A stretch of DNA of 64,000 bases, taken from IMG/VR virus record IMGVR_UViG_3300011116_000922, positions 83,411 through 147,410 of that record, one strand, 5' to 3'. This stretch comes from a virus. Numbering within the stretch: the stretch's first letter is position 1; the number at the start of each line of letters is the position of its first letter. Below the pieces are notes generated by a model. That model was not told the DNA's origin. It did no database searches and saw only the letters and a list, made by a program, of their open reading frames with translations. Below are positions 907 to 52,153 of this stretch, one piece after another. The position numbers were made by a program, and so were the translations under genes.

Positions 907-3132
907 ATGGAACAGTTTAAGCGTTTTTCAACCCCTAAAGCCGTCCCATCGGCTTCTAAGCCCCTACCGTTTTCGGAGGGGCATTATGGGTTTGGATCCC
1001 GTTTTGCGCTGACCCATCGGATCAAAGGCACGGAATACGCGGTTGGGGATGTGTTTACATATATTCCCGAAGGCGAATCGCGCCGCCACGATCCTTATAT
1101 TTTGAAAATTGGCGAAGGCATTGGGGAAACTTGTTTTCTTGACCCCCACGGTAGAGCAGTGATTCTGTCCGCTGATGTCAGCGTGGTCAACACTATTTTT
1201 GAATACCGGGAAACACCACCACAGACGGTGGTGCTGTCAGAGGGTGAGGAGTACACTCCCCCTCCTGCGCCTCCGGTGTTTATTACGGAAGGTGAATTCA
1301 AGCAATTCCGCAAGGGTTTGGCTACAGTTCTTTCCGAAATTGCTGCTATTGCTCCCGACAAGGGAGAGCGCGGTGATCGGGGAGAGCGCGGCGAACGCGG
1401 CGAGAAGGGTGATCCGGGCGAACCCGGAGCGCAGGGGGTTCCCGGTGAAACGGGACAACCGGGCATTCAGGGTGAACAGGGCGAAAAAGGAGAACCCGGA
1501 GAACGGGGAGAAAAAGGAGAACGCGGTGACAAAGGCGAAAACGGCGAAAAAGGCAATCAAGGCGAACCGGGAGAGCATGGAAGACCGGGTGAGAAGGGTG
1601 ATAGAGGAGAAGTGGGCCCTCGCGGTGAACGCGGTGAGAAGGGTGATCGCGGCAATCCGGGGCGTGATGGGCTTCCGGGCAAGCCCGGAGCAGACGGCAA
1701 AGACGGCAAGCCCGGTGCGAAAGGCGAGAAGGGCGACCGGGGCGAAAAAGGCGAACGGGGGCTAAAGGGAGAACCCGGTGCCGCAGGAACAAAAGGCGAC
1801 AAGGGAGATCCGGGGGAGCAGGGCGAACCCGGACTCCTTTCCGCCAAGTTCCCGTTGGTGTACAACGCGGAAGACAAGTCTGTTTCCATTGACGAAGAAC
1901 GCCTTGACAAGATTCTGAAGAAGATCATGGGCGGTGGCAAGGTTTCGCCGCAGGACATGGGCTGGCTTGCTTCCACAGGTGGCGGCGGCAAGGTGGCTGT
2001 GTACCACAATGGGGTGAAAATCACACCCGATGTGCGTGGCATAAACTTCACTGGCTCGGGTGTGGCTTCCGTCACCAAAGAAAACGGGGTGGGCGGCAAA
2101 CTCATCGTGAACATTCAGGGAGGCGGTGGAAGCGGTGTCACTGGTCCCACTGGTCCCACTGGTTCTGCGGGTGCAACGGGTGCAGGCGGTGCGCTTGGAT
2201 ACTGGGGATCGTTTTGGGATACAGGCAAAAAAACCGTAGTAAGCACCACTACTGCTTACGGCATCACATTCAACAACAGTGACCCGCAGAACAATGGTGT
2301 AACGGTGGTTGACGGCAGCAAGATCACCTTCCAAAGCACAGGAGTGTACAACCTACAGTTCTCTGCACAGGTTTTCAATACCGAGAACAACCAAGAACAC
2401 GAAGCCACATTCTGGCTGAAGAAAAACGGAAACAACATTCCCGATACTGCGGGTACCATAACAGTAATAGGAAAGCATTCAGATATCACTGGCGCAGCAC
2501 TGCCGTCTTGGAACTGGATGCTGCCACTGAACGCAAACGATTATGTTGAATTGTATTGGCACACCAATTCAACGAATGTGCTGCTTGGCACACTTCCCGA
2601 AGGCACATCCCCTGTGCATTCGGTGTCTCCTGCGGTCATATTCACTGCACAACAGGTCATGTACACGCAAGTTGGTCCCACAGGACCGACTGGTCCCACA
2701 GGAGCCACCCCCACGGACTATGTGTCTTCCGCTAACGGCTTGACGGGTGCGATTGAGTTTCGGGGTGGTAGAGGAATCACACACACCACTGGCAGCAATG
2801 GTATATCTTTTGGCATTGACTACATTAAGGGTGGCACAACTTTTACAGCCATAGCAAATGTTCCTTCCTCGGGATATCAAGCAGGAACAGACTTGATGCT
2901 GTTCCAAGACAAGAACGGGACAAATCCGCCGTATCTTACAAACATTTCAAACTTCTTGGGTTACTTTCTTCCGTACACGAAAACAATCAGTACTGTTGAT
3001 ATTGCCCCACTAACAACTAATAGTTTTCTTATGTCTTCAAGCGGAGGATCTGAAGGCGGTGTCACATTTTCTGATATGGTGGCACTTATTTCAACAAATC
3101 TGACCATTGTGGACGGTGGAACCTACACCTAA
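907..3132 (+). CDS. collagen-like fibre / virion structural protein
   Basis: Long Gly-X-Y run, GPTGPTG linkers, beta-rich domain (GVYNLQFSAQ...DYVELYW), terminal DGGTY. Confidence 0.8.
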   Translation: MEQFKRFSTPKAVPSASKPLPFSEGHYGFGSRFALTHRIKGTEYAVGDVFTYIPEGESRRHDPYILKIGEGIGETCFLDPHGRAVILSADVSVVNTIFEYRETPPQTVVLSEGEEYTPPPAPPVFITEGEFKQFRKGLATVLSEIAAIAPDKGERGDRGERGERGEKGDPGEPGAQGVPGETGQPGIQGEQGEKGEPGERGEKGERGDKGENGEKGNQGEPGEHGRPGEKGDRGEVGPRGERGEKGDRGNPGRDGLPGKPGADGKDGKPGAKGEKGDRGEKGERGLKGEPGAAGTKGDKGDPGEQGEPGLLSAKFPLVYNAEDKSVSIDEERLDKILKKIMGGGKVSPQDMGWLASTGGGGKVAVYHNGVKITPDVRGINFTGSGVASVTKENGVGGKLIVNIQGGGGSGVTGPTGPTGSAGATGAGGALGYWGSFWDTGKKTVVSTTTAYGITFNNSDPQNNGVTVVDGSKITFQSTGVYNLQFSAQVFNTENNQEHEATFWLKKNGNNIPDTAGTITVIGKHSDITGAALPSWNWMLPLNANDYVELYWHTNSTNVLLGTLPEGTSPVHSVSPAVIFTAQQVMYTQVGPTGPTGPTGATPTDYVSSANGLTGAIEFRGGRGITHTTGSNGISFGIDYIKGGTTFTAIANVPSSGYQAGTDLMLFQDKNGTNPPYLTNISNFLGYFLPYTKTISTVDIAPLTTNSFLMSSSGGSEGGVTFSDMVALISTNLTIVDGGTYT
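1363..1833 (+). repeat. collagen Gly-X-Y coding repeat
   Basis: GERGDRGERGERGEKGDPG...GEQGEPG uninterrupted triplets. Confidence 0.9.
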
Positions 3133-3160
3133 ATACTGTACGCACTATTAGGACACAACT

Positions 3161-5152
3161 ATGGCAACACAGATCACATTCCGCCGAGGCTCGTCCTTCC
3201 CCACCGCAGGATCGGGAATCACCTTGGCAGAACCAGTATTTGAAACCACGCTGCACACCTTCCATATCGGCTTGGGGTACGGTATAACGGCAGAGTGGGT
3301 TGGTGCGCCCATCAGCGGATTGAGCGCAGACATTGCCGCAGGCATTACCTACAAGATTCCCACAGCCGCAGCGGTAAAGAACTATATCAACGGGCTGTGT
3401 TTCGGCAACACTGGTGGTGGAGCAGTTTCTTCTGTTTCAGGATCGGGAAACGGAGTATTGGTTTCTCCCACCACAGGTGCGGTTGTGGTATCCAATACTG
3501 GTGTCCACTCATTCAACGGATTGACGGGCGCAGTACAAGGTGTGTCGGCTGCTGTGGCAGGAACAGGAATATCGGTTAGCGGAGCCACTGGTTCTGTCAC
3601 TATTACAAACATAGGTGTTCAGTCCTTCAACGGGCGCACAGGTGCAGTCACAGGCGCATCACTGGGTGCAAACACTTTCACTGGTTTGCAGACCATGACT
3701 TTGGGCATCAGTGCTGCGGGTGGCATGACTCTTGCAGGTACGCTGAACACTACTGGTGATATCAAGTTCAACGGAACCGCTGCCAAGAGCATTACAACCA
3801 CACAGGCTCCCCTCACCATCAAGGGAGTGACAAGTAGTGGTATTTCTGTGTCTGGTTACAATGCTATTGTGCTTGGTGTTCAAACGACTGATCCATTAAA
3901 ACTATGGTCTGCTAGTGGTGTAGTTGATATTAATTCCGATACGGCAACTGCTTTTAGCACAAGTATTAAACTCAATACAAACGATGGTAATTTCGAGCCA
4001 CTTACAGCATCTGTAACCATTCAGCCTAGCACCTATTTCACCGCAGACAGAACCCTGAACATACAGGACGCTTCAGGCACGATTGCGCTGACAAACCAGT
4101 TGATGGGGACAGTGAACGGCTCCACCGCTGCAACCACTGCTGTTACTTCGTTCAATGGACTCACGGGAGCCGTGGGCGGTGTATGTGCTGCACAAGCCAA
4201 CACCTTTACCGCACTACAGACATTCAACAGCGGAATCTCCGCTGCGGGTGGAATTACATTTGGAGCCACTGCTGCTTTCTCCAACAGCGCAGTGTTTGCA
4301 AACGCAGAGTACATTCGGAATACCACGAACGGTCAACTTGACCTCATGCCTGCTCCTGCGGGATCAACGGCATTCGGAATTTATTTTGACATGACATCGT
4401 GGAGTTACGGTGTCATCATGGGCACTATCCGCACATCCGATGGACTCAAGAACACGGGCGGAAACTTCCGATTCGATGCTCCGCTGACAATCAACAACGA
4501 CACATTCTTCCAGTTGGGTTCTGACGGACAGTACAGATTCCAAAGAACATCCACTGGAAACGATACCGCACAGTTTGGTGCGTACTGCGACGGCGTGAAC
4601 AACAGCGGTGCGTATGCGATTGTTGGATTCGGATCGGAAGGTACTGCAAACCGCAGTCCTGCAACCAAGCACAGTAATCCCAACCTGTACATCTACGCCA
4701 ACGGCAACGCAAGCGCAAACGATTTCGTGCGATTTGAGCATGATCGCACAAACGCGAACATCGTAAGCGGCGGAACAAGCGGAATTTTTGTTCAGCCCGG
4801 AAACGGAATCGTTGGTGTCAGTGGTGGTGTTTCTGCTGACGCTTTCATGTTGGCTGGCGGGGGCATCAGGACACTCACCGGAACCACATACACTTTCCTT
4901 GCAACTGACAACGGAAAAGTGATAACCATGAACAACGCCAGTGGCATAACTGCAACGGTTCCTTCAGGACTTCCTGTGGGGTACAGCGTGACCGTGATTC
5001 AACTTGGTGCTGGTCAGGTCGGCTTTACTGCTGCTTCCGGTGTTACTCTCAACTCGTATACATCGCTGAGAAAGATCGCTGGACAGCACGGTTCTGCGTC
5101 AGTTGTTTCGTACAGCAGCAATGTGTTCAATCTAGCAGGAAATCTGGCATGA
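3161..5152 (+). CDS. tail-fibre-like protein
   Basis: N-terminal ITFRRG...LAEP fibre-attachment-like motif, repeated SFNG(L/R)TGAV, G/T/S/A-rich, C-terminal IQLGAGQV...LAGNLA domain. Confidence 0.75.
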   Translation: MATQITFRRGSSFPTAGSGITLAEPVFETTLHTFHIGLGYGITAEWVGAPISGLSADIAAGITYKIPTAAAVKNYINGLCFGNTGGGAVSSVSGSGNGVLVSPTTGAVVVSNTGVHSFNGLTGAVQGVSAAVAGTGISVSGATGSVTITNIGVQSFNGRTGAVTGASLGANTFTGLQTMTLGISAAGGMTLAGTLNTTGDIKFNGTAAKSITTTQAPLTIKGVTSSGISVSGYNAIVLGVQTTDPLKLWSASGVVDINSDTATAFSTSIKLNTNDGNFEPLTASVTIQPSTYFTADRTLNIQDASGTIALTNQLMGTVNGSTAATTAVTSFNGLTGAVGGVCAAQANTFTALQTFNSGISAAGGITFGATAAFSNSAVFANAEYIRNTTNGQLDLMPAPAGSTAFGIYFDMTSWSYGVIMGTIRTSDGLKNTGGNFRFDAPLTINNDTFFQLGSDGQYRFQRTSTGNDTAQFGAYCDGVNNSGAYAIVGFGSEGTANRSPATKHSNPNLYIYANGNASANDFVRFEHDRTNANIVSGGTSGIFVQPGNGIVGVSGGVSADAFMLAGGGIRTLTGTTYTFLATDNGKVITMNNASGITATVPSGLPVGYSVTVIQLGAGQVGFTAASGVTLNSYTSLRKIAGQHGSASVVSYSSNVFNLAGNLA

Positions 5153-9006: not shown

Positions 9007-9054
9007 ATTGAGTCCTCCTGTACCGTATTTATAACCCATGCCATACATACTTGT

Positions 9055-37412: not shown

Positions 37413-37485
37413 GGCACTGTAGCCCAATGGCAGAGGCATTCGACTCAAAATCGAAACAGTGTGGGTTCGACTCCCACCAGTGCTA
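37413..37485 (+). tRNA. tRNA-Leu(CAA), short variable loop
   Basis: TTCGA-CTCAAAA-TCGAA; GGTTCGACTCC. Confidence 0.88.
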
Positions 37486-37493
37486 CTAAAAAA

Positions 37494-37808
37494 ATGCCCA
37501 CTATGCAAAACGCCCAATTCCGCAATACCGTTTCGCAACACCGCTGCTCCCGCTATGCCATCCTCATGCAGCCCGGTAGTCACGGGCGCACCACCGTGAC
37601 TTTTTTCTATGATCCCCAACGCGCTTCCGTATTCGTGTGGTTGACTGCCAACACAGAGGACGGCTCACCGCTGTCCGTGGACGGTGGGCAGTACAGGCTA
37701 GAGCGCGATTGGCATATCTCACTGTTCACTGACAACGCTCGGCGCATATGGGCGGAACTGCTAGCGGGGGGATGGCGCGAGATTGCTGTGGGTAGCCTCG
37801 GCACATGA
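37494..37808 (+). CDS. early protein with ARRIWAELLAGGW motif
   Basis: C-terminal motif shared with six other ORFs. Confidence 0.7.
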   Translation: MPTMQNAQFRNTVSQHRCSRYAILMQPGSHGRTTVTFFYDPQRASVFVWLTANTEDGSPLSVDGGQYRLERDWHISLFTDNARRIWAELLAGGWREIAVGSLGT

Positions 37809-37977
37809 TGCAGACTAAATAAAATTGTAGCCGTGTGGGATTCGTCCCGTACATCGCTACCACGCCCCTGACCGCTACACGCTGTCAGGGGTTTTTTTGT
37901 TTTTACAGGCAATTTGCGCGCCTCTACAGGGTGTGCGTACAGGCGTGGCGTACAGGTGTTCGGGGACCAGTGATTTT

Positions 37978-38291
37978 GGGGCCGGGGGTGGGTACGGTAG
38001 GGCCGCTAGCACAGCCCGGTCAATTTCGCGCAACGGAATTCAAAAATTTGGGACTCCGGTAAATGGCTCAAATAGATTTCAAATATTGGGACTCCAGCAA
38101 CCCCGTGCAGAGATTTCAAATATTGCCGGGGCATCCTAGCCACACCACAGCCCCCACACAACCCTGCCGCCGCACAGCCCCTCCCTAGCCTCTCTAGCCC
38201 CTCCCTAGCCCCATCCCCCAATACGCTTACAGGAATCCCTAAACGCTTACGCCGCCGTGCCCCCACACCAAAACAGTTTTCAAATATGGGG
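37978..38291. repeat. non-coding locus: four TTCAAA(T/A)AT repeats interleaved with opposite-strand G4 motifs
   Basis: Repeats at 38039, 38074, 38111, 38277; G-runs 37978-38002; C-runs 38198-38219. Confidence 0.7.
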
Positions 38292-38430
38292 AGCAGCACA
38301 GGGGTTCAAAGCCTCCGGTGGACGCGGGCAGGACTGCATCTATTACCGCAGCCACCAGTAAAGTGGTTTAATAGGATTACTGTAGAGCGCATGAAACAGG
38401 GATTAAATATTGGAACGGGGGGTGGGGGTC

Positions 38431-38458
38431 TTGCGCGGAGGCAGGGGTGTGCTATACT
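38431..38458 (+). promoter_or_regulatory. sigma70-type promoter
   Basis: TTGCGC-16-TATACT with extended TG. Confidence 0.6.
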
Positions 38459-38464
38459 AGGGGC

Positions 38465-38584
38465 ATGACACACTTTCTATTCCACTGGCTGATTCCTGTG
38501 CTTACTGCGGGAATCGGAATCCTCCTCGCTACCATTATTGCGTCTGTGGCATGGGACACCCTGTACGGACACGGCAAGAACTAA
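38465..38584 (+). CDS. small membrane protein
   Basis: MTHFLFHWLIPVLTAGIGILLATIIASVAW. Confidence 0.55.
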   Translation: MTHFLFHWLIPVLTAGIGILLATIIASVAWDTLYGHGKN

Positions 38585-38588
38585 AGCA

Positions 38589-38816
38589 ATGCCCAACCAC
38601 ACCACTACAACAGACTCCTCGCTGCGGGTTGAACTGCGATTGCGTGAAATGGCAGACAAGTGGCATGACGCAAATCGTGCAGTATACGAAATGTGCCGTG
38701 ACGCTGCGGAAGAGATTCGGGTGTTGCGTGTGGAGCGCAGGGCAGCGGAAGCCGCTGCTGCTCTTACACACTCGTATCCCTACGGCACGGGATGGGGCAA
38801 GGGCAAGGACGAATGA
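38589..38816 (+). CDS. hypothetical protein
   Basis: DAAEEIRVLR motif; ATGA coupling. Confidence 0.6.
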   Translation: MPNHTTTTDSSLRVELRLREMADKWHDANRAVYEMCRDAAEEIRVLRVERRAAEAAAALTHSYPYGTGWGKGKDE

Positions 38817-39226
38817 ACAGCACCGGAGACAAGCACTACACGGAATACCTGCTGATAGACAAGCACGCCTGTCAGTGGATTTTCCGCGTGTTTGAAACCG
38901 ATTGGGCAGATGTGCTTGTGCAGGTGTTACCGCAGGATGGGAGCAGCACTCCCCTTGTGTGGGCGCATCAGGTGCGGTACGCTCCGAATTTTCTAGCCCA
39001 GTTGCCGCCGGACACACGGCAAGCGGAAATGGCAAAGGCACACCTGTTTGAAAAGAAATATCGTGAGGTAACGGAGTTTGGGTACGACGACCCCTCAACA
39101 GGCTGGGCCGTGGCAGGAATTCGCATCCGGTTCAACCGGGACAACACCATGCGGTTGGGCAAGGGTGACGCACGGCGGCTGTGGGAGCGGATACGGCAAG
39201 ACTCCCCCCACACATCTAAAATATAA
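38813..39226 (+). CDS. early protein with ARRLWERI motif
   Basis: Truncated version of shared C-terminal motif. Confidence 0.6.
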   Translation: MNSTGDKHYTEYLLIDKHACQWIFRVFETDWADVLVQVLPQDGSSTPLVWAHQVRYAPNFLAQLPPDTRQAEMAKAHLFEKKYREVTEFGYDDPSTGWAVAGIRIRFNRDNTMRLGKGDARRLWERIRQDSPHTSKI

Positions 39227-39254
39227 AAATCACGAACGGTAGCCGTATAAATAA

Positions 39255-39376
39255 GTGTGGTCCGGGCAGCGTAGACAGGAGCGAACACTGATTACGCTAT
39301 TCGTGCAAAGGAACTTCGCTACCTTTCGACCGTCATAGAGGGGGAGTCCCACGGGTAGGGACTCCCCCGCTTTTTT
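39255..39376 (+). ncRNA. candidate structured ncRNA (3-way junction with loop-loop pairing)
   Basis: TATAAATA at 39246, paired stems, 11-bp terminator; no ORF. Confidence 0.55.
39340..39376 (+). terminator. intrinsic terminator
   Basis: GGGGGAGTCCC/GGGACTCCCCC then T-run. Confidence 0.85.
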
Positions 39377-39383
39377 ATTTGCA

Positions 39384-39728
39384 TCAGGTTTCATCGAAAA
39401 GGCCACCCGCGACCATAATTTCTGCAATTAGTGTGGCATCCAGTACGAGATCAAGATTTCCGTACTTGATGGGAAAGCCTGTGGGGCGATCACGCGAGGG
39501 CCACAGCGGCGGCACGGGTTCGGCTTTCACCGTGCCTGTGGCAATATCCACCTCAATGGGTGACACGCCTTCAATTCTCCAGTTGGGCACAGACTCCACC
39601 ACTGCGGATTGGATTTTTGCAGTGGTGCCCAAATCCGTGTCCGTGGTGGGTGCTGCTGCGGGGGTGTCGTTTAATTCGTTTGTACGGGCAGTGCGTTGTG
39701 CCTGAATAGCGTTCCAAGATAATGCCAT
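39384..39728 (-). CDS. hypothetical late protein
   Basis: MALSWNAIQ...; GGAGG RBS and CTACATA. Confidence 0.65.
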   Translation of the reverse strand: MALSWNAIQAQRTARTNELNDTPAAAPTTDTDLGTTAKIQSAVVESVPNWRIEGVSPIEVDIATGTVKAEPVPPLWPSRDRPTGFPIKYGNLDLVLDATLIAEIMVAGGLFDET

Positions 39729-39792
39729 AGGGTTCCTCCCCCATATGTAGGAGCATGGAATAAAAAAACTAAATAGTGCTGGAGGACACCCC

Positions 39793-40332
39793 ATGCGATT
39801 TGAATCACAGAAATACCGCGCACTGAATGAAAGCATTTCCCGTATTGAAGAGGCTCCGGGCAGCGGAGTGGAAGGCGACTACGAAGGCGAGATGGCACGG
39901 GGTGAACTCAAGTCTGCCATTGCCAACGCACAGGAACTGCTTGAACTGCTTGGCGAAGACGACGAGATTGAAGCGTGGGTGCAGTCCAAGATCACCAAAG
40001 CCGCGGACTACATTTCCGCTGTTCGCAACTACATGGTGGGCAACACCATTGAGGAAGCCACCGCTGCATGGCAGCGCAGTGCAGGAAAGAACCCCGAGGG
40101 CGGCTTGAACCGCAAGGGCGTGGAATCGTACCGCCGTGAACACCCCGGCTCCAAATTGCAGACAGCGGTCACAACCAAACCAAGCAAACTCAAGCCCGGT
40201 TCCAAAAGCGCAAACCGCCGCAAGTCGTTCTGCTCACGCATGAAGGGCATGAAGGCTAAACTCACATCGGCTGAAACAGCGCGGGATCCTGATTCGCGCA
40301 TCAACAAGTCTCTGCGAAAGTGGAACTGCTGA
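39793..40332 (+). CDS. DUF6321-like conserved myophage protein
   Basis: AWQRSAGKNPEGGLN...RRKSFCSRMKGM...SRINKSLRKWNC. Confidence 0.8.
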   Translation: MRFESQKYRALNESISRIEEAPGSGVEGDYEGEMARGELKSAIANAQELLELLGEDDEIEAWVQSKITKAADYISAVRNYMVGNTIEEATAAWQRSAGKNPEGGLNRKGVESYRREHPGSKLQTAVTTKPSKLKPGSKSANRRKSFCSRMKGMKAKLTSAETARDPDSRINKSLRKWNC

Positions 40333-40333
40333 A

Positions 40334-40597
40334 ATGGCTTCATCAACACCGCGTCCCGGACTCGCTGACCCAACAGGTCATGCCACACAGATAAACGCTG
40401 TTGCGGTAACCACCACCGACATCACCGCGATCAAGGAAGAATTGATTGTTGAAATTGGTGAACTGCCACTGCCTATTCAGGGCAGTGTGGTGACTTCATA
40501 CAACGGACTCACAGGTGCAGTGCAAGGCGTTTCCCAATTCAACGGTGCCACGGGCGCGGTGAGTTTCTTGGTGGACGGCGGCGAGTTTACCGCGTAA
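40334..40597 (+). CDS. mini fibre-repeat protein
   Basis: SYNGLTGAVQGVSQFNGATGAV...DGGEF. Confidence 0.65.
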   Translation: MASSTPRPGLADPTGHATQINAVAVTTTDITAIKEELIVEIGELPLPIQGSVVTSYNGLTGAVQGVSQFNGATGAVSFLVDGGEFTA

Positions 40598-40749
40598 ACT
40601 CCAAATTTTATATTCCGTAAAACCCTGTTCCTGCGGCGTGAGCGGGGGTACAGCAATAAAGTATGGGATTGATTGCCCCAACCATCGGGGCTTTCCTCTA
40701 GATAAAGCACCCTTCGCGTGAAGGGCTTTTTCTTAAAGGAGAAGAACTG

Positions 40750-41499
40750 ATGAAGACTTTTATTGCAACGGCACTACTTGGAGCAGCGACTAGCGTAGCC
40801 TCTGCCCAAACCGTCCCTGCCACCACGGCACCCGCGACCGCTCCTGCTGTCATCAACAGCATCAGCGTAAACGAGAGCCTGACATTTTGGGGCAAGACCA
40901 ATGCTGACACGGTAGTGGAACTGGACTCCACCATCAAGGGCAAGATTTACGATCTGCTTGGTTGGCATATCACTGCTCCCGTGTACACGCAGGACTACAC
41001 TGGATACGGCGCACTTGATCTTGGCGCGGACTACGGCTTGGTTAAGGATGCCAAGTTCATTGGCTCCGTCACCAACTTCAACCTTGAAGGCGGCGCGTGG
41101 ATGCCCACGGGTTCCGCAGGTTACGGCACCGACAATGTGAATCCCCATGTTGGCTTTGACTACAACATGACTTGGGGTTCGATTGTGTACACCCAAACCT
41201 TTGACTTCCGTTGGGTTGGCTCGGTTGCGTATAGCCCCGTGTTCGGCAACTTCAACAACTACGGCGCGAATGCCGATTCGTTTGTTGCGTACAAGTGGGA
41301 CAACCTCTCGGTTGGTGTGGAACTCAACCAGTGGTACACCGATGGCGAGAATGTTGGTTACCTCGGCCCCAAGGCTGAATGGTCGGTTGCCAACAATGTA
41401 AACCTGAGTGCAGGAATCGGCATTCCTGTTTGGCAGGAAGTTAATTCCGCAAATGAGAATTCGTGGAATTTCACTGCTGGCGTTGGTATCAAGTTCTAA
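40750..41499 (+). CDS. outer-membrane beta-barrel protein
   Basis: Sec signal ending ASA, amphipathic beta strands, terminal GVGIKF. Confidence 0.8.
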   Translation: MKTFIATALLGAATSVASAQTVPATTAPATAPAVINSISVNESLTFWGKTNADTVVELDSTIKGKIYDLLGWHITAPVYTQDYTGYGALDLGADYGLVKDAKFIGSVTNFNLEGGAWMPTGSAGYGTDNVNPHVGFDYNMTWGSIVYTQTFDFRWVGSVAYSPVFGNFNNYGANADSFVAYKWDNLSVGVELNQWYTDGENVGYLGPKAEWSVANNVNLSAGIGIPVWQEVNSANENSWNFTAGVGIKF

Positions 41500-41520
41500 T
41501 TCATTTTAAAGAAGAAACAC

Positions 41521-41676
41521 ATGAGTACAAAGAATCATTGCCCCGTTACCGGATGCTTTTGTTGGAAGAACCCCCTGCACCTCGCAGGCTTCCTTGCCTT
41601 GCTCCCGTTTGCGGTCAAGGGCTTCGTTTGGGTTTGGGCTGCGGCTACGGCAGCAGTAAACAACCTCGTCAAGTAA
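41521..41676 (+). CDS. small Cys-containing membrane protein
   Basis: MSTKNHCPVTGCFCWKNPLHLAGFLALLPFAV. Confidence 0.6.
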   Translation: MSTKNHCPVTGCFCWKNPLHLAGFLALLPFAVKGFVWVWAAATAAVNNLVK

Positions 41677-41700
41677 TTGACGAAACCACTTTCGGAAGGG

Positions 41701-41729
41701 GAGGGCAGAAATGCCCTCCCTTTTCATTT
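41701..41729 (+). terminator. intrinsic terminator
   Basis: GAGGGCA-GAAA-TGCCCTC then CCTTTT. Confidence 0.75.
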
Positions 41730-41971
41730 GGAAAGAAACAACCCCCTTGCGGGGGTTGTCGGGCTAGAGATGCTATCTCTAGCGGGGCGGGGTGATCGCT
41801 ACCTTTTAAACTAATCAGGTAAGGATTATGTATACAGGAAATACTTTTAGTTTTCCTGACTGGCTGGTTGTCTGGAAACACTTGTGGAATTAAGGGCTTC
41901 CACTTAATCCCTTTAGTTCAAGTCCCGTCATATTTGTTTTGTTTATCCCGCAGAAAGTTTTGTGTCCCGGC

Positions 41972-41999
41972 TTGACACCGTGGCAGGGCATGGTATATT
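41972..41999 (+). promoter_or_regulatory. sigma70-type promoter
   Basis: TTGACA-16-TATATT, extended TG. Confidence 0.75.
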
Positions 42000-42005
42000 T
42001 TGTGT

Positions 42006-42632
42006 ATGGAACTTCTCAACGCTTGGATGTTGTACCGACCTGCAACCGACACCCGGTTGCCTGATTGCGTGTTCTTTGAACATGGCGCAGACGAGCGGTG
42101 GATGTGTGTGCAGTACCGTTCCGATGCGGACTACAAAACCGCTACTCGCGGTGCCGTGGGTCTGCCTGTGTGTCTTCTTCGCCGCAGCGTGGAATCCATG
42201 CGTGAGATTTGGACGCGATTCATTGATGACGGTTGGGTTCGTGTGGACGCTTGTACTCCGCAGGGCTGTTCGTTTGCTACTGCGGCAAAACACGCATTTG
42301 TTCACCGCAACAAGATTGCCACCGATCAGCACAGCGGTGTGGACGGTATGTTTGGAACACTGACCCGAGACAGCGACCTGTTCAGCGAGTTGTATTTCGC
42401 AAAGAAACTTCCCACCCCTGATGGATTCCACGCGGTCAAGGGAATGCCCTTGTATTCGTTCCTGCGTTCCCATCGTGGCATGTTCACCACTCCCCCGACT
42501 CCGCGCCCGGTTGCACTCCCCGATCCGGCACAGCAAATTGCAGAAATCTTCCGCCAAGCAATGGAAGAGGAGCGGGAGAAGTACGAGTCTGATTATTGGG
42601 GAAACAACACCAACTACGCCTTGGAGGCATAA
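42006..42632 (+). CDS. early protein with MREIWTRFIDDGW motif
   Basis: Shared motif; promoter-proximal. Confidence 0.7.
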   Translation: MELLNAWMLYRPATDTRLPDCVFFEHGADERWMCVQYRSDADYKTATRGAVGLPVCLLRRSVESMREIWTRFIDDGWVRVDACTPQGCSFATAAKHAFVHRNKIATDQHSGVDGMFGTLTRDSDLFSELYFAKKLPTPDGFHAVKGMPLYSFLRSHRGMFTTPPTPRPVALPDPAQQIAEIFRQAMEEEREKYESDYWGNNTNYALEA

Positions 42633-43075
42633 TGTCAAAAACTCGCCGTGTACTTTTTGTGGATGATCTTCTGTATCGTTGGGACATTTTCAAGGGTCTG
42701 TATCAAGACCCCGAAACGGCTCATGTGGAATTCGTGTGGGCCAAGGATTACGACGAAGCCATTGCCCAACTGCAAAACGGAAAATGGGATGTGGTGTTCC
42801 TTGACCATGATCTAGAGGATCCAATGGAATACGATCTCAAGATGGGTTGGCGTGACGGCAGTGCCATTGTGGATTGGATTCGTGAACACACTCCACAAAT
42901 TGATTTTGCGGTTTGCCATTCCATGAATCCCGTGGGTCGGCAGCGCATGATGTCAGGTTTGGAGCGCAGTGGATACCCTGCACGATCCATTCCGTTTTAC
43001 GCTTTTGACCAATCTCTGCATCCATTGGTTTCAGGTGGGGACGGCTCCAACATTTCAAATAACGAAACCGATTGA
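42632..43075 (+). CDS. cyclic-phosphate-processing receiver-like domain protein
   Basis: LFVDD, FLDHDL, HSMNPVG. Confidence 0.75.
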   Translation: MSKTRRVLFVDDLLYRWDIFKGLYQDPETAHVEFVWAKDYDEAIAQLQNGKWDVVFLDHDLEDPMEYDLKMGWRDGSAIVDWIREHTPQIDFAVCHSMNPVGRQRMMSGLERSGYPARSIPFYAFDQSLHPLVSGGDGSNISNNETD

Positions 43076-43135
43076 AATAAACAAAACCTGTTCTGCCCTA
43101 TTGACACACCCACAAAGTCTGCTACAATTACCCAC

Positions 43136-43405
43136 ATGACAAATCTACTCTTCGAAACCGCAAAGCAGTATCTTGGAACTGGCGCAATCGTTCGCTTGGT
43201 GTTCACCAAGAAGGATGGAACGGAACGAGTGCTAATCGGCACACGGAGTCTTGATCGGATTCCTGCTGAACTGCATCCAAAGGGGAGTGATGCGGAAAAG
43301 AAGAGTGATGCGTTCCCGGTTTACGATGTTGAGGCAGGGGGTTGGCGTTCCTTCAAGCCCGACACTCTAAAGGCAGTGGAACTGCTGCCTGAAGCCTCCG
43401 CGTAA
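43136..43405 (+). CDS. WYL_2 / SH3-like barrel protein
   Basis: FTKKDGTERVLIGT...VYDVEAGGWRSF; promoter TTGACA-16-TACAAT at 43101. Confidence 0.8.
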   Translation: MTNLLFETAKQYLGTGAIVRLVFTKKDGTERVLIGTRSLDRIPAELHPKGSDAEKKSDAFPVYDVEAGGWRSFKPDTLKAVELLPEASA

Positions 43406-43460
43406 TCGGGACGCGCAACAATTCGGAAATGTGCCTGAAATATTCATATTTTTGGCACCC

Positions 43461-43554
43461 GCGAAAACCCCTGCTAAAACAGGGGTTTTTCGTAAATAAT
43501 TATCGGACTTTATTTGCGTAGCCTCTTGACGGAAACCCCTGTTTCCAGTACAAT
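43461..43554 (+). promoter_or_regulatory. sigma70-type promoter with conserved upstream element
   Basis: AAAACCCCTG/CAGGGGTTTT palindrome, TTATCGGAC, TTGACG-17-TACAAT. Confidence 0.75.
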
Positions 43555-43562
43555 GGTGGTCT

Positions 43563-44369
43563 ATGGCAACTGCCTCAACTACCGCACCCATGCGCCGCTC
43601 CACCCGTTCGCCCATGTCCTACACGCCGTTCGTGCTGAACCCGTCCGCTCTCCCCTACGGTCTGTGGATCGACATCCCGTTCCGCAAGCGCGGCAGCACG
43701 GCTATCCGCTCCGAAGCCAAGGGTCGCGGTGCGCGTTTCTGCCCTGCTGCCAAGGGCAACATCAAGTGGTGGATGCCGCAGAACCGCCTGACAGCGGACA
43801 CCGTGGATTGGCTCAACAAGAACGAAATGATTCGCGGTGAGCGCAAGGCTCCGGTGTTCAACCCCAACGCCATGACGGTCGCGGACATCAACCTCGCGTA
43901 CCCGTTCCGTGTGTACCTTGCCGTGCCGTTCGTGGACAAGGATCACGCCAAGGGCATGAGCGCGAAGTTCTGCGGTGACGCGAAGCGGTGGTATTTCGAT
44001 GCCACCAGCATCACGCAGCAGCGGTTTGACGAGATGCTGCGTAGGCAGTGGGTGTTCTCGTTCCACGGTGTGCTGAAGAGCGACACCACGCACACCGCTA
44101 CGGGCGTGTACTTCTTTGCGGAAGACCTTGGTGGTGCGGTCGCAGTGAAGTCCGTCCCCGCGCCGTTCGTGCCGCAAGCGTGGACTTTCGTGAAGAACGG
44201 GATGTTCATCACGATGCACACCACCACAGACGGTTGCATCGTGCTGACCTCCGATAGCGAGAACTATGTGGACGGCATCTACACGAAGGACGAGGCGCGT
44301 GTCACTTGGAACGCGCTGGTCGCTGACGGGTGGGTGCTGTCGCAGACGCACGGAGGCAACAATGCCTGA
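43563..44369 (+). CDS. DUF5710-like repeat protein with C-terminal ARVTWNALVADGW
   Basis: Two IPF/VPF..AK..GA(R/K)F...WW/WY units. Confidence 0.7.
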   Translation: MATASTTAPMRRSTRSPMSYTPFVLNPSALPYGLWIDIPFRKRGSTAIRSEAKGRGARFCPAAKGNIKWWMPQNRLTADTVDWLNKNEMIRGERKAPVFNPNAMTVADINLAYPFRVYLAVPFVDKDHAKGMSAKFCGDAKRWYFDATSITQQRFDEMLRRQWVFSFHGVLKSDTTHTATGVYFFAEDLGGAVAVKSVPAPFVPQAWTFVKNGMFITMHTTTDGCIVLTSDSENYVDGIYTKDEARVTWNALVADGWVLSQTHGGNNA

Positions 44370-44580
44370 AGTGTTCACGCCACTGGAGTGGGTACTGGTG
44401 AACAAGGACATCCCGTCCGTGTTTGTCTCCATGATAAACACCGCAGACGACAAGATCATTATTCAGAGCAACGACACGCAGGAGTTGCCTGACATCCCGC
44501 CAAGCGGCATCTACTCCAAGGACGCGGCACGGCGGGCATGGGACAACCTGATGGGGTGGGGTTGGAAACGGGTCAAGTAA
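44362..44580 (+). CDS. small protein with GIYSKDAARRAWDNLMGWGW
   Basis: Paralog of preceding gene C-terminus; GGAGG RBS. Confidence 0.75.
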   Translation: MPEVFTPLEWVLVNKDIPSVFVSMINTADDKIIIQSNDTQELPDIPPSGIYSKDAARRAWDNLMGWGWKRVK

Positions 44581-44590
44581 ACAGAGGAGA

Positions 44591-44872
44591 ATGACAGAAA
44601 TGTGCAAATACGAACACTGTGACAGTTGCGGTTGCCGCGTTCACGCGAAGGCGCGTTGCGTGGTGAGATCCCTGCCGTGCGATGTGGCTTCCGCCAATGT
44701 GGGCGAGAGCGCGACCCTGTGCCGTCGTTGCTACGGCATCGTGTCGGGCAAGGACGCGCCTGTTTCGGATGACAACATGAACCCGTGCCGCTGCTGCGGC
44801 GAACCCGTTTACGACACCGACTACGACACCTGTGACGGCTGTGAGCCGACCGAGGAGAACACCAATGGGTAA
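44591..44872 (+). CDS. Cys-rich zinc-finger-like protein
   Basis: Four CxxC pairs. Confidence 0.65.
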   Translation: MTEMCKYEHCDSCGCRVHAKARCVVRSLPCDVASANVGESATLCRRCYGIVSGKDAPVSDDNMNPCRCCGEPVYDTDYDTCDGCEPTEENTNG

Positions 44873-45209
44873 GACCAAGACGAAGAAGAAGACCCCCGCC
44901 AAGCGCATGACGAAGATGGAGCGACGGTCGATTGAGGCACACAACACCAAGCCCGATTCCGTTGTCACCACCAACGGGTGGGGCGGTGAGGTGGGCGTGG
45001 AGGCAGGATTCAACCGTGTGGGCAAGCACGGTGAGCGAACCGCAACCATTGACGCTTACGACAATGGTTACGACCCCGATGACCCGATCCGTTTCGTGAG
45101 CCTGTCGTTCAACGATCCGTATTCGCTGCGTGAACTCGCAGACGCGCTGAATGCCGTTGCGGATTGGATGGACGAGGACAGACCCCAGTTTCCGAAGGAG
45201 CAGCGATGA
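44865..45209 (+). CDS. hypothetical protein
   Basis: RBS GAGGAG; coupled operon. Confidence 0.65.
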   Translation: MGKTKTKKKTPAKRMTKMERRSIEAHNTKPDSVVTTNGWGGEVGVEAGFNRVGKHGERTATIDAYDNGYDPDDPIRFVSLSFNDPYSLRELADALNAVADWMDEDRPQFPKEQR

Positions 45210-45391
45210 AGACCGCAAAAGAAATGGTTGCAGACGCACTCACCAACGCACTCCTCACTATGTGGCGGGAGAACCACCCATACGATGACCCCGAGGTTTA
45301 CACCGCTGACTTTCAGCGGATGTGCGAACGCCAGTTGTACTTCATCGTGAAAACGGGACTCAAGAAGAACAAGGAGAACATCAATGACTGA
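45206..45391 (+). CDS. hypothetical protein
   Basis: RBS AAGGAG; ATGA overlap. Confidence 0.6.
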   Translation: MKTAKEMVADALTNALLTMWRENHPYDDPEVYTADFQRMCERQLYFIVKTGLKKNKENIND

Positions 45392-45710
45392 CAACGAATT
45401 CATTCCCGCGTCCCTCCGTATTGGCGCGACTCCTGCTCCCCGTCCCGAAGTGCCCCTTGATGTGCTGCTGCGGGGCATCAACAGCAATTACGAGGAGTGG
45501 ATGACCAACAGTCCCCATTGGGATCGCAACGACACCCGTAATCTCATCATCAGCATGAAGGTTGCTCTTGAGCGACTACAGCAGGAGCGCGACGAGGCGC
45601 GGCGGCTTTACTGTAGGGCTGTTGAAGAAATTGAACATGGTATGACCAACGAGACTGAACGCATGGTTGCCGATTTTCTTGAATGGGACTGCTTCAAGGA
45701 AAATTCCTGA
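45384..45710 (+). CDS. protein with ERDEARR...WDCFKEN module
   Basis: Module repeated in 46023..46283. Confidence 0.7.
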   Translation: MTDNEFIPASLRIGATPAPRPEVPLDVLLRGINSNYEEWMTNSPHWDRNDTRNLIISMKVALERLQQERDEARRLYCRAVEEIEHGMTNETERMVADFLEWDCFKENS

Positions 45711-45808
45711 CGGATTTCCTGTCACGAACTACCGTCACAGACGGTGTATACAATGCAACCACATGGTGTGGGGGCAACAACAAGAAAGAGAAATTGAAAG
45801 GACTAATT

Positions 45809-46030
45809 ATGGCTACCAAGACCAAGAAAACTTCTACCCCAAACAATGTCAAATTGCTCAATCGTCTGTCAAGCATGACTGAAAAAATGGATATGCTTGC
45901 AAATGATGTAATGGACGGTCAGGTTTCGGCAGACGAAATCTACGACAGGCTTGACGGCATCAGAATCAACATTGAGTTGATCCATGACGCTCTCCATAAC
46001 AACATCAACAAGGAGAACACCAATGGATGA
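45809..46030 (+). CDS. hypothetical protein
   Basis: RBS AAGGA. Confidence 0.6.
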   Translation: MATKTKKTSTPNNVKLLNRLSSMTEKMDMLANDVMDGQVSADEIYDRLDGIRINIELIHDALHNNINKENTNG

Positions 46031-46283
46031 CGCAACGAAGGAAGACCTGTTGGCGATCCTGAATGAAAAACAGGAAGAGATTGAATGGCTCAAAGCGGAA
46101 CTTGATGAAGCAAACCACTGTCGGGAACTTTCCGATGCTGAATGTGTGACGCTCCGCAACGAGCGTGACGAGGCACGGCAGCGTTACTGCTTTGCGATGG
46201 CAGAGCATGGCGAGGAAGCCGAAGCACGGCAGAACGCAAAGGACGAGGGATGGGACTGCTTCAAGGAGAACACCGATGCCTGA
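46023..46283 (+). CDS. protein with ERDEARQ...WDCFKEN module
   Basis: RBS AAGGAG. Confidence 0.7.
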   Translation: MDDATKEDLLAILNEKQEEIEWLKAELDEANHCRELSDAECVTLRNERDEARQRYCFAMAEHGEEAEARQNAKDEGWDCFKENTDA

Positions 46284-46425
46284 CTCCCACGACATTTGCA
46301 CGATACTCACAGTCTCATTCATCGGGATTGCCCTTTTGTTCTCTGTCTTGGCTTGCATGAAAAACAGAGAAACGGAACGATTGCTCAAGTCGATTAAAGA
46401 AAAGCAGAATCACAATGCCCGCTGA
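46276..46425 (+). CDS. small membrane protein
   Basis: One TM segment; RBS AAGGAG. Confidence 0.55.
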   Translation: MPDSHDICTILTVSFIGIALLFSVLACMKNRETERLLKSIKEKQNHNAR

Positions 46426-46747
46426 ATACGACACCAACCGAATGACCCCACGACAGCGCAAGTCTCTCAACCGCAGTAAACTGCTGCACGATCTTGTGAT
46501 CCCGTTTCTGATCGTGGGAATGGCAGCGTCCTTGTTTGCTGCCTACGGATGCAGACGGCACAACCCCAACAGTCCCGTGCCTAATGCCCATGTGACCAGT
46601 GGCAAATACCACCAATACATGGACTGCCGTGTTCTCAAGGCAGGCAACGGCAGCATTGAACTCATTACGCAGGACGGACAACACATCACCATTCAGGGAG
46701 AAGCCCAAGTGTATTGGTTCCCCGAAGAGCCAAAGGAGCCGCAGTGA
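46415..46747 (+). CDS. membrane-anchored protein
   Basis: TM segment then small beta domain. Confidence 0.6.
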   Translation: MPAEYDTNRMTPRQRKSLNRSKLLHDLVIPFLIVGMAASLFAAYGCRRHNPNSPVPNAHVTSGKYHQYMDCRVLKAGNGSIELITQDGQHITIQGEAQVYWFPEEPKEPQ

Positions 46748-47046
46748 ACACCGCACACGCACTCTACCATCCCGCCGTGGACCACACCCTTGTTTTCCAC
46801 ATTGACCCCGTTCGCTACGAAGGCACGATTCGCTACTACTCTGGTCCGCTTGCGGTTCCCCACAAAGAAGTGCATCACACCTTTTCACTTTCAGAAATCA
46901 ACGGCACGGAACACAAGGGTGTGCGGTCAGGGCAGAACACCTTTTCGGTTCCCGTGCTGCGCGACATATGGAAGGCACTCGTAGTCTACCGTGAAGGTGG
47001 ATGGGTTGCCCACCCACTAAAGAACTACCCCACGCCCGTGAAGTAA
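46744..47046 (+). CDS. early protein with LRDIWKALV..EGGW motif
   Basis: GTGA overlap, AAGGAG RBS, shared motif. Confidence 0.65.
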   Translation: MNTAHALYHPAVDHTLVFHIDPVRYEGTIRYYSGPLAVPHKEVHHTFSLSEINGTEHKGVRSGQNTFSVPVLRDIWKALVVYREGGWVAHPLKNYPTPVK

Positions 47047-47057
47047 AGGAAACACCG

Positions 47058-47390
47058 ATGCCCCAAATGCACAGACACCGAACGCTCCGTGAACACTTCA
47101 AACATCCACAGGACTTCAGGAGAATCCTCCGCAATCCGCAGATTGGAGTGGTCACCTTTGCGTGGGACGAGACTCCCGAGACTCCCAACAATCCCGATGT
47201 CGTGGTGTGCTTTCATCCGTATGGGGCAGAGCGAGACTTGCGTTTGCGTGTTGGAACCCTTGAGATCAGGCTTGCAGAAGACGATCCGCTCAGCATGGGC
47301 ATTGTGTTGGGACGGCGAGTGTGGGACACCATCGCAAACACGGATGGATGGAAACTTTGGACACCGCAAACAGAAACGGAAACGCCATGA
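47058..47390 (+). CDS. early protein with GRRVWDTIANTDGW motif
   Basis: Shared motif. Confidence 0.65.
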   Translation: MPQMHRHRTLREHFKHPQDFRRILRNPQIGVVTFAWDETPETPNNPDVVVCFHPYGAERDLRLRVGTLEIRLAEDDPLSMGIVLGRRVWDTIANTDGWKLWTPQTETETP

Positions 47391-51611: not shown

Positions 51612-51843
51612 AGAACTACACGCACTGATTGCCACTCGGAATTTCCTGTACGATCTGCTTGATCCGCGGAAGACTCCGCGAGTGCCACGCAGCATCCGGC
51701 TCCGTGCGCGGCAAGTGTGCAAGCACTACCCGTTTGATGACAACATCAGACAGCGGTGGGAAGACAGCATCCGTGAGAGTGGTTGGGGCAGTGAATTGAA
51801 TAGATACACTGATACTGTTGACGGTGGATCGAAACGCGAATAG
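51595..51843 (+). CDS. conserved small phage protein (MTLPHEE...TPRVPR..R..AR...KHYP)
   Basis: Motif recalled from T4-like phages; 3' end overlaps tmRNA acceptor piece. Confidence 0.65.
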   Translation: MTLPHEELHALIATRNFLYDLLDPRKTPRVPRSIRLRARQVCKHYPFDDNIRQRWEDSIRESGWGSELNRYTDTVDGGSKRE

Positions 51844-52153
51844 CACGGGGGTTCGAATCCCCCCGACTCCATTAGCCTAACCTGATTTCCACTGCGAGTT
51901 TTCAGGGACGGCGAATCAAGTCCTCTGTGCAGCGGGGCAATCCCCGGAGTGCTAGCCTCCGGGAAACGGGGTCGAACCGGAATCGACTAGCGCGGATTAG
52001 TGAAGCAAGAGGTATCCGGGGCGGGTTACAGAGCCTCGTTAAAAACCCTGTTGCAACCATAATTGCCAACAGAATGGCAATGGCGGCTTGAAGCCGTGGG
52101 GAAAGCCCTCCCGCATCTGAACGGGCAGGACGGGACGGCAGAAATGCCGTCCC
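51808..52153 (+). ncRNA. ssrA: circularly permuted (two-piece) tmRNA
   Basis: T-arm and acceptor 3' strand CGACTCCA (51847-51871) lie upstream of 5' GGGGTCG..GGAATCGAC (51968); G3-U70; tag ANRMAMAA* at 52065-52091; terminator 52132-52160. Confidence 0.9.

Follow-up and report, generated by a model that had tools for sequence, protein, structure and literature searches.

The locus

Do seven small phage genes that share a short peptide motif descend from one domain, and if so, from which? The question is raised by a 64,000-nucleotide stretch of DNA (the window) that covers positions 83,411–147,410 of IMG/VR virus record IMGVR_UViG_3300011116_000922, a complete genome of 147,410 base pairs (bp) with direct terminal repeats that belongs to a large uncultured T4-like phage. 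The original prediction, made from the letters alone, described seven early genes of the window, here called P1 to P7, as a panel of diverged paralogues on one scaffold, in which a beta-rich segment is followed by the helix R-x-x-W-x-x-L-x-x-x-G-W, recalling a cyanobacterial DUF1651 or WGR-like C-terminus. All seven peptides that it quoted are found in the window on the plus strand. The coordinates attached to them are gene starts, not motif positions, and 38813, 42006, 44362, 46744 and 47058 agree with gene calls in homologues or with the N-termini of orthologues; the P4 start at 43563 is likewise compatible with the homologues. For P1, 37494 is the first ATG after a tRNA-Leu gene, and the orthologue N-termini fit 37503 better. 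The motif is complete in six of the genes, but in P2 it is truncated and lacks the GW. The genes are as follows (window positions; aa, amino acids).

37503–37808, plus strand: P1, ~101 aa, domain from about residue 30, alternative ATG at 37494; motif at 37740–37775
38813–39226, plus strand: P2, 137 aa, D-A-R-R-L-W-E-R-I (ARRLWERI) at the extreme C-terminus, after which the protein ends; motif at 39173–39193
42006–42632, plus strand: P3, 208 aa, motif at the end of an N-terminal segment of ~80 aa, then an extension of ~125 aa; motif at 42201–42236
43563–44369, plus strand: P4, 268 aa, DUF5710 (aa 116–149) and C-terminal family domain (aa ~195–268, DNA 44145–44366); motif at 44298–44333
44362–44580, plus strand: P5, 72 aa, minimal free-standing domain; motif at 44530–44559
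46744–47046, plus strand: P6, 100 aa, GTG start, motif with a longer spacer (RDIWKALVVYREGGW); motif at 46960–47004
47058–47390, plus strand: P7, 110 aa; motif at 47313–47351

We consider it fairly probable that the locus encodes a lineage-specific family of small proteins built on one domain, that P1, the C-terminal part of P4 (P4C) and P5 are its core and a divergent phage branch of DUF1651, and that the domain serves as a non-enzymatic binding module.

A core family of P1, P4C and P5

Five related phage contigs and two database searches supplied relatives of every member. There are five orthologues of P1 in related phages and four database homologues, and P4 orthologues with 61–79% identity occur in five phage contigs. 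When P5 was compared by tblastn with the C-terminal 64–72 residues of the P4 orthologues, identities of 31–39% were obtained, with E values down to 3e-9 in a small database. Profile comparison with HHalign matched P4C to P5 at 97.5% over 59 columns and the enriched P1 group to the P4C/P5 group at 93.6% over 47 columns, from which it follows that P1, P4C and P5 share one domain. With the helix cut off, the upstream parts of P1 and P4C/P5 beat column-shuffled controls (z = 3.1, 1/50). At the level of sequence profiles, the three can thus be demonstrated to be true paralogues of one domain of ~65–70 residues. Invariant in it are the Asp of a T-x-D-G turn and five motif residues, R, W, L, G and W.

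P4 belongs to the DUF5710 family (PF18974), with 40.3 bits against a cut-off of 26.5, and its homologue P0016 scores 45.1 bits. In other proteins DUF5710 occurs in fusion with Rep_3 plasmid replication initiators (PMC11233732). Visual inspection of P4 shows a further, degenerate repeat of DUF5710 type (L-W-I-D-I-P-F-R-K ... K-W-W-M-P) at residues ~33–72, within window positions 43563–43800.

The ATG of P5 lies inside the last codons of P4 (ATGCCTGA), with GGAGG 6 nucleotides (nt) upstream. The gene before P4 (43136–43405, plus strand) encodes a WYL_2 protein, an Sm-like SH3 barrel (Pfam PF10902, 60.7 bits), and is a conserved upstream neighbour of P4–P5. The window and divergent metagenomic contigs share the order WYL_2, a DUF5710 protein of ~275 aa and a P5-type gene of ~71 aa, in which the stop and start of the last two overlap:

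43136–44580 of the window: WYL_2–DUF5710–P5-type cassette
1989–3720 of locus L163: the same cassette
471–1926 of locus L164: the same cassette
691–1735 of locus L165: the same cassette

WYL_2–P4–P5 is therefore a conserved cassette, while the gene content around it varies between related phages. The DUF5710 protein of the cassette has the family domain at its C-terminus and the next gene is a free copy of that domain, so that P5 reads as a translationally coupled free copy of P4C.

A P5 model calculated with AlphaFold2 from 17 family sequences is confident (predicted local distance difference test, pLDDT, 88.8). It has strands at residues 9–14, 17–26, 32–36 and 49–51, a helix at 53–65 and a bridge at 69–70. 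The motif is the helix, which bears its A, R, W and L, and the GW runs into the last strand. In the model the spacing of A, W and L puts them on one buried face, the helix stops at G and the last strand starts with W; the motif A-R-x2-W-x2-L-x3-G-W is for this reason most likely the hydrophobic core of the fold and not a catalytic or docking site. The beta-rich segment predicted before the motif is accordingly present in P5, whereas for P7 it appears only in a model of low confidence (see below). A Foldseek search of the PDB with the P5 model returned nothing at E ≤ 0.001.

The core family is narrow, fast-evolving and lineage-specific, with ~15 representative clusters in a large library. An exhaustive hidden Markov model (HMM) search of 1.84 billion representatives gave 18 matches, of which three are repeat artefacts and the rest are of P1, P4 or P5 type. 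The giant proteins P0012, P0018 and P0023 were considered as domain fusions and rejected, being Ig-like or SWM-repeat adhesins that sum weak partial matches. A word-index search with P5 found only copies at 82–99% identity. No relatives were confirmed by scans of viral contigs with P1, P6 and P7 or found in a cellular genome scan with P5, and PHROGs offered nothing useful for any of the seven proteins.

A terminator-like hairpin (37578–37611, 8 bp stem followed by TTTTTC) lies inside the conserved 5' part of P1. It stands ~90 nt past the tRNA-Leu gene (37413–37486) and could terminate the tRNA transcript or attenuate P1.

Relation to DUF1651

DUF1651 (Pfam PF07864) is a cyanobacterial domain of unknown function. 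Picocyanobacterial genomes were reached through what we take to be a cyanobacterial 16S primer site, and five of them (loci L129–L155), including the freshwater Vulcanococcus and Synechococcus CS-1330, carry 4–6 genuine DUF1651 genes each, in varied neighbourhoods. Since every genome sampled has 4–6 copies, freshwater strains included, DUF1651 is a multi-copy family not confined to marine strains.

From 20 of these genuine genes a profile was made and compared with the phage groups by HHalign. The core matched at 93.9%, P1 at 91.7% (61 columns) and P4C/P5 at 91.1% (26 columns); P3 reached 51–66%, P2 21%, P7 3.6% and P6 0.6%, so that the profile similarity is limited to the three core members. 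DUF1651 and the phage core have their conserved residues at exactly the same distances, A(−4), W(0), L(+3), G(+7), W(+8). P1, P3, P4, P5 and P7 all have the DUF1651 helix spacing A-x3-W-x2-L-x3-G-W, P6 has a longer spacer and P2 has no GW. A protein language-model search with P5 placed DUF1651 clusters at 28 of its 30 top neighbours (score 0.92, 187–193 shared features).

The Pfam DUF1651 model gives a fainter signal. Matches below the threshold (13–18 bits) are found in P1, P4 and five further homologues, all located on the helix, and the best score among the homologues is 18.0 bits (P0021). The six-frame scan of the genome gave 14.5 and 13.3 bits. Sub-threshold Pfam matches of these proteins are nearly all to DUF1651, the exception being P0021, which also weakly touches two unrelated families; similar weak DUF1651 matches occur in unrelated control genomes.

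Several results weigh against a DUF1651-type family at this locus. No member reaches the Pfam gathering cut-off of 22 bits: P1 scores 15.9 bits, P4 15.1 bits and the other five show no match. The DUF1651 signal is carried almost wholly by ~26 columns, and once the helix is removed the phage groups lie within or near the column-shuffle null against DUF1651 (z from −0.7 to 2.6, the one nominal excess being a 7-column match). No genuine DUF1651 protein came up in the exhaustive HMM search of 1.84 billion representatives. P2, P3, P6 and P7 align with the core and with each other over 12–30 columns at 5–53%, which is the length of the helix only. P7 is not near DUF1651 in the language-model search, where its best score is 0.77, to unnamed clusters, and its AlphaFold2 model, from its own five sequences only, has a pLDDT of 56.8 (five strands, helix 86–94, strand 99–101). 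On the side of the host, psbA was looked for in the phage and not found, for which reason a picocyanobacterial host is only plausible; the tmRNA (transfer-messenger RNA) of the window was tried as a host marker and set aside, the single permuted-tmRNA model in Rfam 15 giving no discrimination between host groups.

As the signal comes almost wholly from the helix and genuine DUF1651 proteins were not retrieved, we call the phage core a distant branch of the picocyanobacterial DUF1651 superfamily and not a member of the Pfam family. This placement, carried by the helix, is probable. The predicted DUF1651-like C-terminus accordingly holds for the three core members, with profile matches of 91–94% and identical spacing, though not at the level of the Pfam cut-off, and the HMM search that the original prediction had named as a check matched DUF1651 below threshold only. 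Searches of the PDB found no solved DUF1651 structure.

The remaining four genes

The core thus accounts for part of the proposed seven-gene panel on one scaffold: P1, P4C and P5 are paralogous, whereas P2, P3, P6 and P7 align over the helix only. Structure prediction gave a confident fold of strands, motif helix and strand for P5 and a low-confidence one for P7, which leaves a single scaffold for all seven unproven. Of the five related phage contigs, one has P5 and one has P7, and all five lack P3 and P6.

P3, with two close homologues, probably belongs to the family. It matched the core at 52–65% over 20 columns, and at 80–83%, in the helix region only, once a protein from locus L007 had been added. 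The gene for this protein of 149 aa (L007 8431–8877) stands between those orthologous to P2 and P4. The sequence EEARRHWAERIGWGF is found in the middle of the protein, and its C-terminus, ...NTLYALEA, is like that of P3. The match of this protein to the core reaches 63.5% over 54 columns, and it is probably a very divergent syntenic counterpart of P3 with a closer resemblance to the core domain.

P2, P6 and P7 share only the helix and are candidate members. None of the 11 homologues of P2 has the GW. Against the other, enriched groups P2 aligned over 12–25 columns at 17–19%, with 34% over 23 columns in a thinner, first comparison with P1; by BLASTP it is 43% identical to a P7 orthologue over 28 aa (E = 5e-5, small database). 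P6 is the weakest candidate: it has two homologues (99% and 74% identity) and matches any other group at ≤30%, over the helix only. P7 has four homologues (50–93% identity) and is collinear with P1 over 90 columns, at just 22.5%.

That all seven genes are nevertheless diverged paralogues of one domain, in which the upstream strands have drifted beyond the reach of sequence methods and the core helix has been kept, seems to us possible, if somewhat doubtful. The full motif is far too rare for chance to place it in another three small genes within the same 10 kilobases (kb). A strand-rich segment of 60–85 residues, predicted or plausible, precedes it in P2, P3, P6 and P7, and a segment of GW plus hydrophobic residues follows it in P3, P6 and P7. 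The collinearity of P7 with P1, the similarity of P2 to the P7 orthologue, which extends across strand, loop and helix, and the 54-column match of the P3-like L007 protein point the same way, as does the order of elements in the P7 model, which is compatible with that of P5 and too weak to count as evidence. However, the upstream parts of the four proteins lie at or near the shuffled null: upstream-only profiles of P3 and P6 score at the shuffled level and those of P2 and P7 at z = 1.5–2.9. The helix-only HHalign matches, the empty language-model search for P7 and the loss of both the GW and the last strand in P2 also speak against common descent of all seven.

Alternatively, the helix of P2, P3, P6 and P7 may be a short peptide module on otherwise unrelated proteins, gained by recombination or convergence and docking one common host or phage partner, so that the ligand and not the fold would be shared. 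The similarity of the four proteins does end at the borders of the helix, the invariant Arg is dispensable for the hydrophobic core and could be a contact residue, and small modules are shuffled in phage early regions. Yet the confident P5 model shows the motif as a buried helix integral to the fold, with an edge strand, and not as an exposed tail; in genuine DUF1651 proteins the buried positions are spaced identically. At the DNA level there is neither a repeat nor a junction that would mark a mobile module, and in all the proteins the strand-rich segment begins at a similar distance from the motif. We consider such a module unlikely.

Relation to WGR domains

The core might instead be a true WGR domain, which binds nucleic-acid ends in PARP1–3 and in WGR proteins of bacteria, and the family members would then sense DNA or RNA ends. 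The order of strands, helix and strand is the same, P4 bears a domain associated with replication proteins, two of the 30 language-model neighbours of P5 are cyanobacterial clusters named WGR, and structural matches to P5 in a viral library include, after the best ones, a phage NAD+ ADP-ribosyltransferase and a 'WGR domain containing protein'. None of this is borne out at the level of sequence. No member has a Pfam WGR (PF05406) match at E ≤ 1, and a profile of 22 genuine cyanobacterial WGR domains matches DUF1651 at 2.8% or less and every phage group at 0.8% or less. The Trp-Gly-Arg strand signature is absent from the phage alignment, which has T-x-D-G at the comparable turn where genuine domains have (W/Y)-G-R-(I/V)-G, and CYTH/TTM proteins and YkuJ score equally well or higher in structural comparison. 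The WGR part of the original prediction is thus not upheld; what is left is a weak resemblance of the modelled fold, and a WGR identity is even less likely than a shared peptide module.

Frequency of the motif

For statistical purposes the motif was written as the strict pattern R..W..[ILMFVA].{2,7}GW, set after the data had been seen. The six-frame translation of the 147,410 bp genome contains six matches, all of them in plus-strand genes between 37.7 and 47.3 kb of the window, and 100 Markov-1 random genomes contained 0.6 on average and three at most. All matches are in frame, in open reading frames for which homologues exist elsewhere, and these too preserve the motif. HMM scans of 3,895 open frames of the genome and of related loci revealed no further strong member.

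Chance or composition as the source of the recurrence can be dismissed as next to impossible. The pattern was defined post hoc, and looser ones such as [RK]..W..[ILMFV] are common (9–16 per frame). Yet there are six strict matches where 0.6 would be expected, all within 10 kb, on the coding strand, in frame and kept in homologues, and domain-level homology is demonstrated for three of the genes. Chance is thereby refuted for the six complete motifs and possible only for the short form in P2.

Promoters and genomic setting

The preferred reading, a core of three paralogues in a lineage-specific family, also concerns when the genes are made. Promoters of sigma-70 type precede three genes of the locus:

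41972–41999, plus strand: promoter before P3, 11/12 matches, ending 7 nt before the P3 ATG
43101–43128, plus strand: promoter before WYL_2
43526–43554, plus strand: promoter before P4

They consist of TTGACA or TTGACG, a spacer of 16–17 nt and a TAxAAT-like element, with 10–11 of 12 matches, and end 7–9 nt before the ATGs of P3, WYL_2 and P4, so that the transcripts would be leaderless or nearly so. The layout fits transcription by the host polymerase, possibly into leaderless mRNAs. The T4-late-type sequence TATAAATA occurs only once in the region, just 3' of P2 (39246–39253), and again at 9026 (minus strand) and 60600 (plus strand), which makes three in the window against 0.42 expected. We infer that the family genes are expressed early.

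P1–P7 lie on the plus strand, 3' of a long block of minus-strand genes. Small genes are interspersed among them, for DUF6321, a beta-barrel-like protein, WYL_2 and a stand-alone receiver:

42596–43075, between P3 and the WYL_2 gene: cREC_REC, cyclic-phosphate processing receiver (Pfam PF20274, 59 bits)

Elsewhere the window encodes tail fibres, a ribonucleotide reductase, ten tRNAs, a permuted tmRNA and a CobS-like AAA+ ATPase, which is nearest to the counterparts in T4-like Synechococcus myoviruses (~60% identity). The tmRNA, in two pieces (51811–52091), scores 66.8 bits with Rfam RF04321 (gathering score 47 bits), and its tag is ANRMAMAA according to ARAGORN. Neither megablast of the region nor tblastn of P5 found a match among 50,697 known phage records.

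Possible function

For these proteins no catalytic motif, known family or informative fusion beyond DUF5710 was found. The most likely role of the domain is a non-enzymatic one in binding. Four beta-strands, an amphipathic helix and a short last strand would form a unit of ~65–70 residues, used free (P1, P5) or fused to the replication-protein-associated DUF5710 (P4). As a module it would bind protein or nucleic acid and would be expressed early in infection, from promoters of host type.

Host DUF1651 genes are induced upon cyanophage infection, and disruption of a DUF3387–DUF1651 operon in Synechococcus WH8102 altered the infection phenotype; the authors suggest that DUF1651 proteins raise phage yield (PMC5490813). 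A phage with DUF1651-like copies of its own would fit these data. One may go further and suppose that the phage encodes an expanded set of DUF1651 type because the host pathway matters for infection, that its copies supply, mimic or out-compete the host proteins and that P4 and P5 are the tethered and the free form of one binding domain; this is conceivable, and we hold it to be rather unlikely.

DUF1651 is among the few host families that repeatedly respond to cyanophage infection in Synechococcus and Prochlorococcus. If the phage copies do act on the host pathway in this way, DUF1651 would be the first such 'host-response' family that a phage has been shown to carry and diversify. A phage lineage with three to seven diverged copies of a related domain would offer a second, independent entry to DUF1651 function. 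With 72 residues and a well-folding model, P5 lends itself to structure determination and binding screens. This link between a phage gene expansion and an enigmatic host-response family is of a value limited by the helix-dominated similarity to DUF1651 and by a host that is putative. More generally, when a short motif is conserved in a set of small phage proteins, it need not be a functional site and can instead be the buried core of an ancient fold.

Comparison with known systems

The WGR domains of PARP1–3, of bacterial proteins of MolR/YehH type and of stand-alone phage WGR proteins do not score above unrelated folds in structural comparison with P5. The best full-length structural matches to P5 in the viral library are S-CAM8 G8EY46 (66 aa) and the uncultured virus protein A0A218MKC2, with template-modelling (TM) scores of 0.68–0.75 and a Foldseek probability of 1.00; S-PM2 Q5GQT5 ('T4-LIKE GC 764') is likewise among the best. 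All three are small, uncharacterised proteins of T4-like cyanophages and of the same size as P5. They differ in sequence, at 8–18% identity, and none was found by the tblastn search of phage records with P5.

Five classical Kyanoviridae genomes (cyanomyophages) contain neither DUF1651 nor the phage family described here. The phage proteins differ from DUF1651 in having neither its N-terminal G-W-L nor its terminal P-x-W, in the fusion of one member (P4) to DUF5710 and in that no similarity is detectable outside the last ~26 residues. In other respects the two are alike: DUF1651 proteins, for example SYNW1658, SYNW2106 and PMM0684, are, like the phage core, small proteins of ~70–110 aa in which a C-terminal helix is followed by a short strand, and, like the phage family, they occur in several diverged copies per genome.

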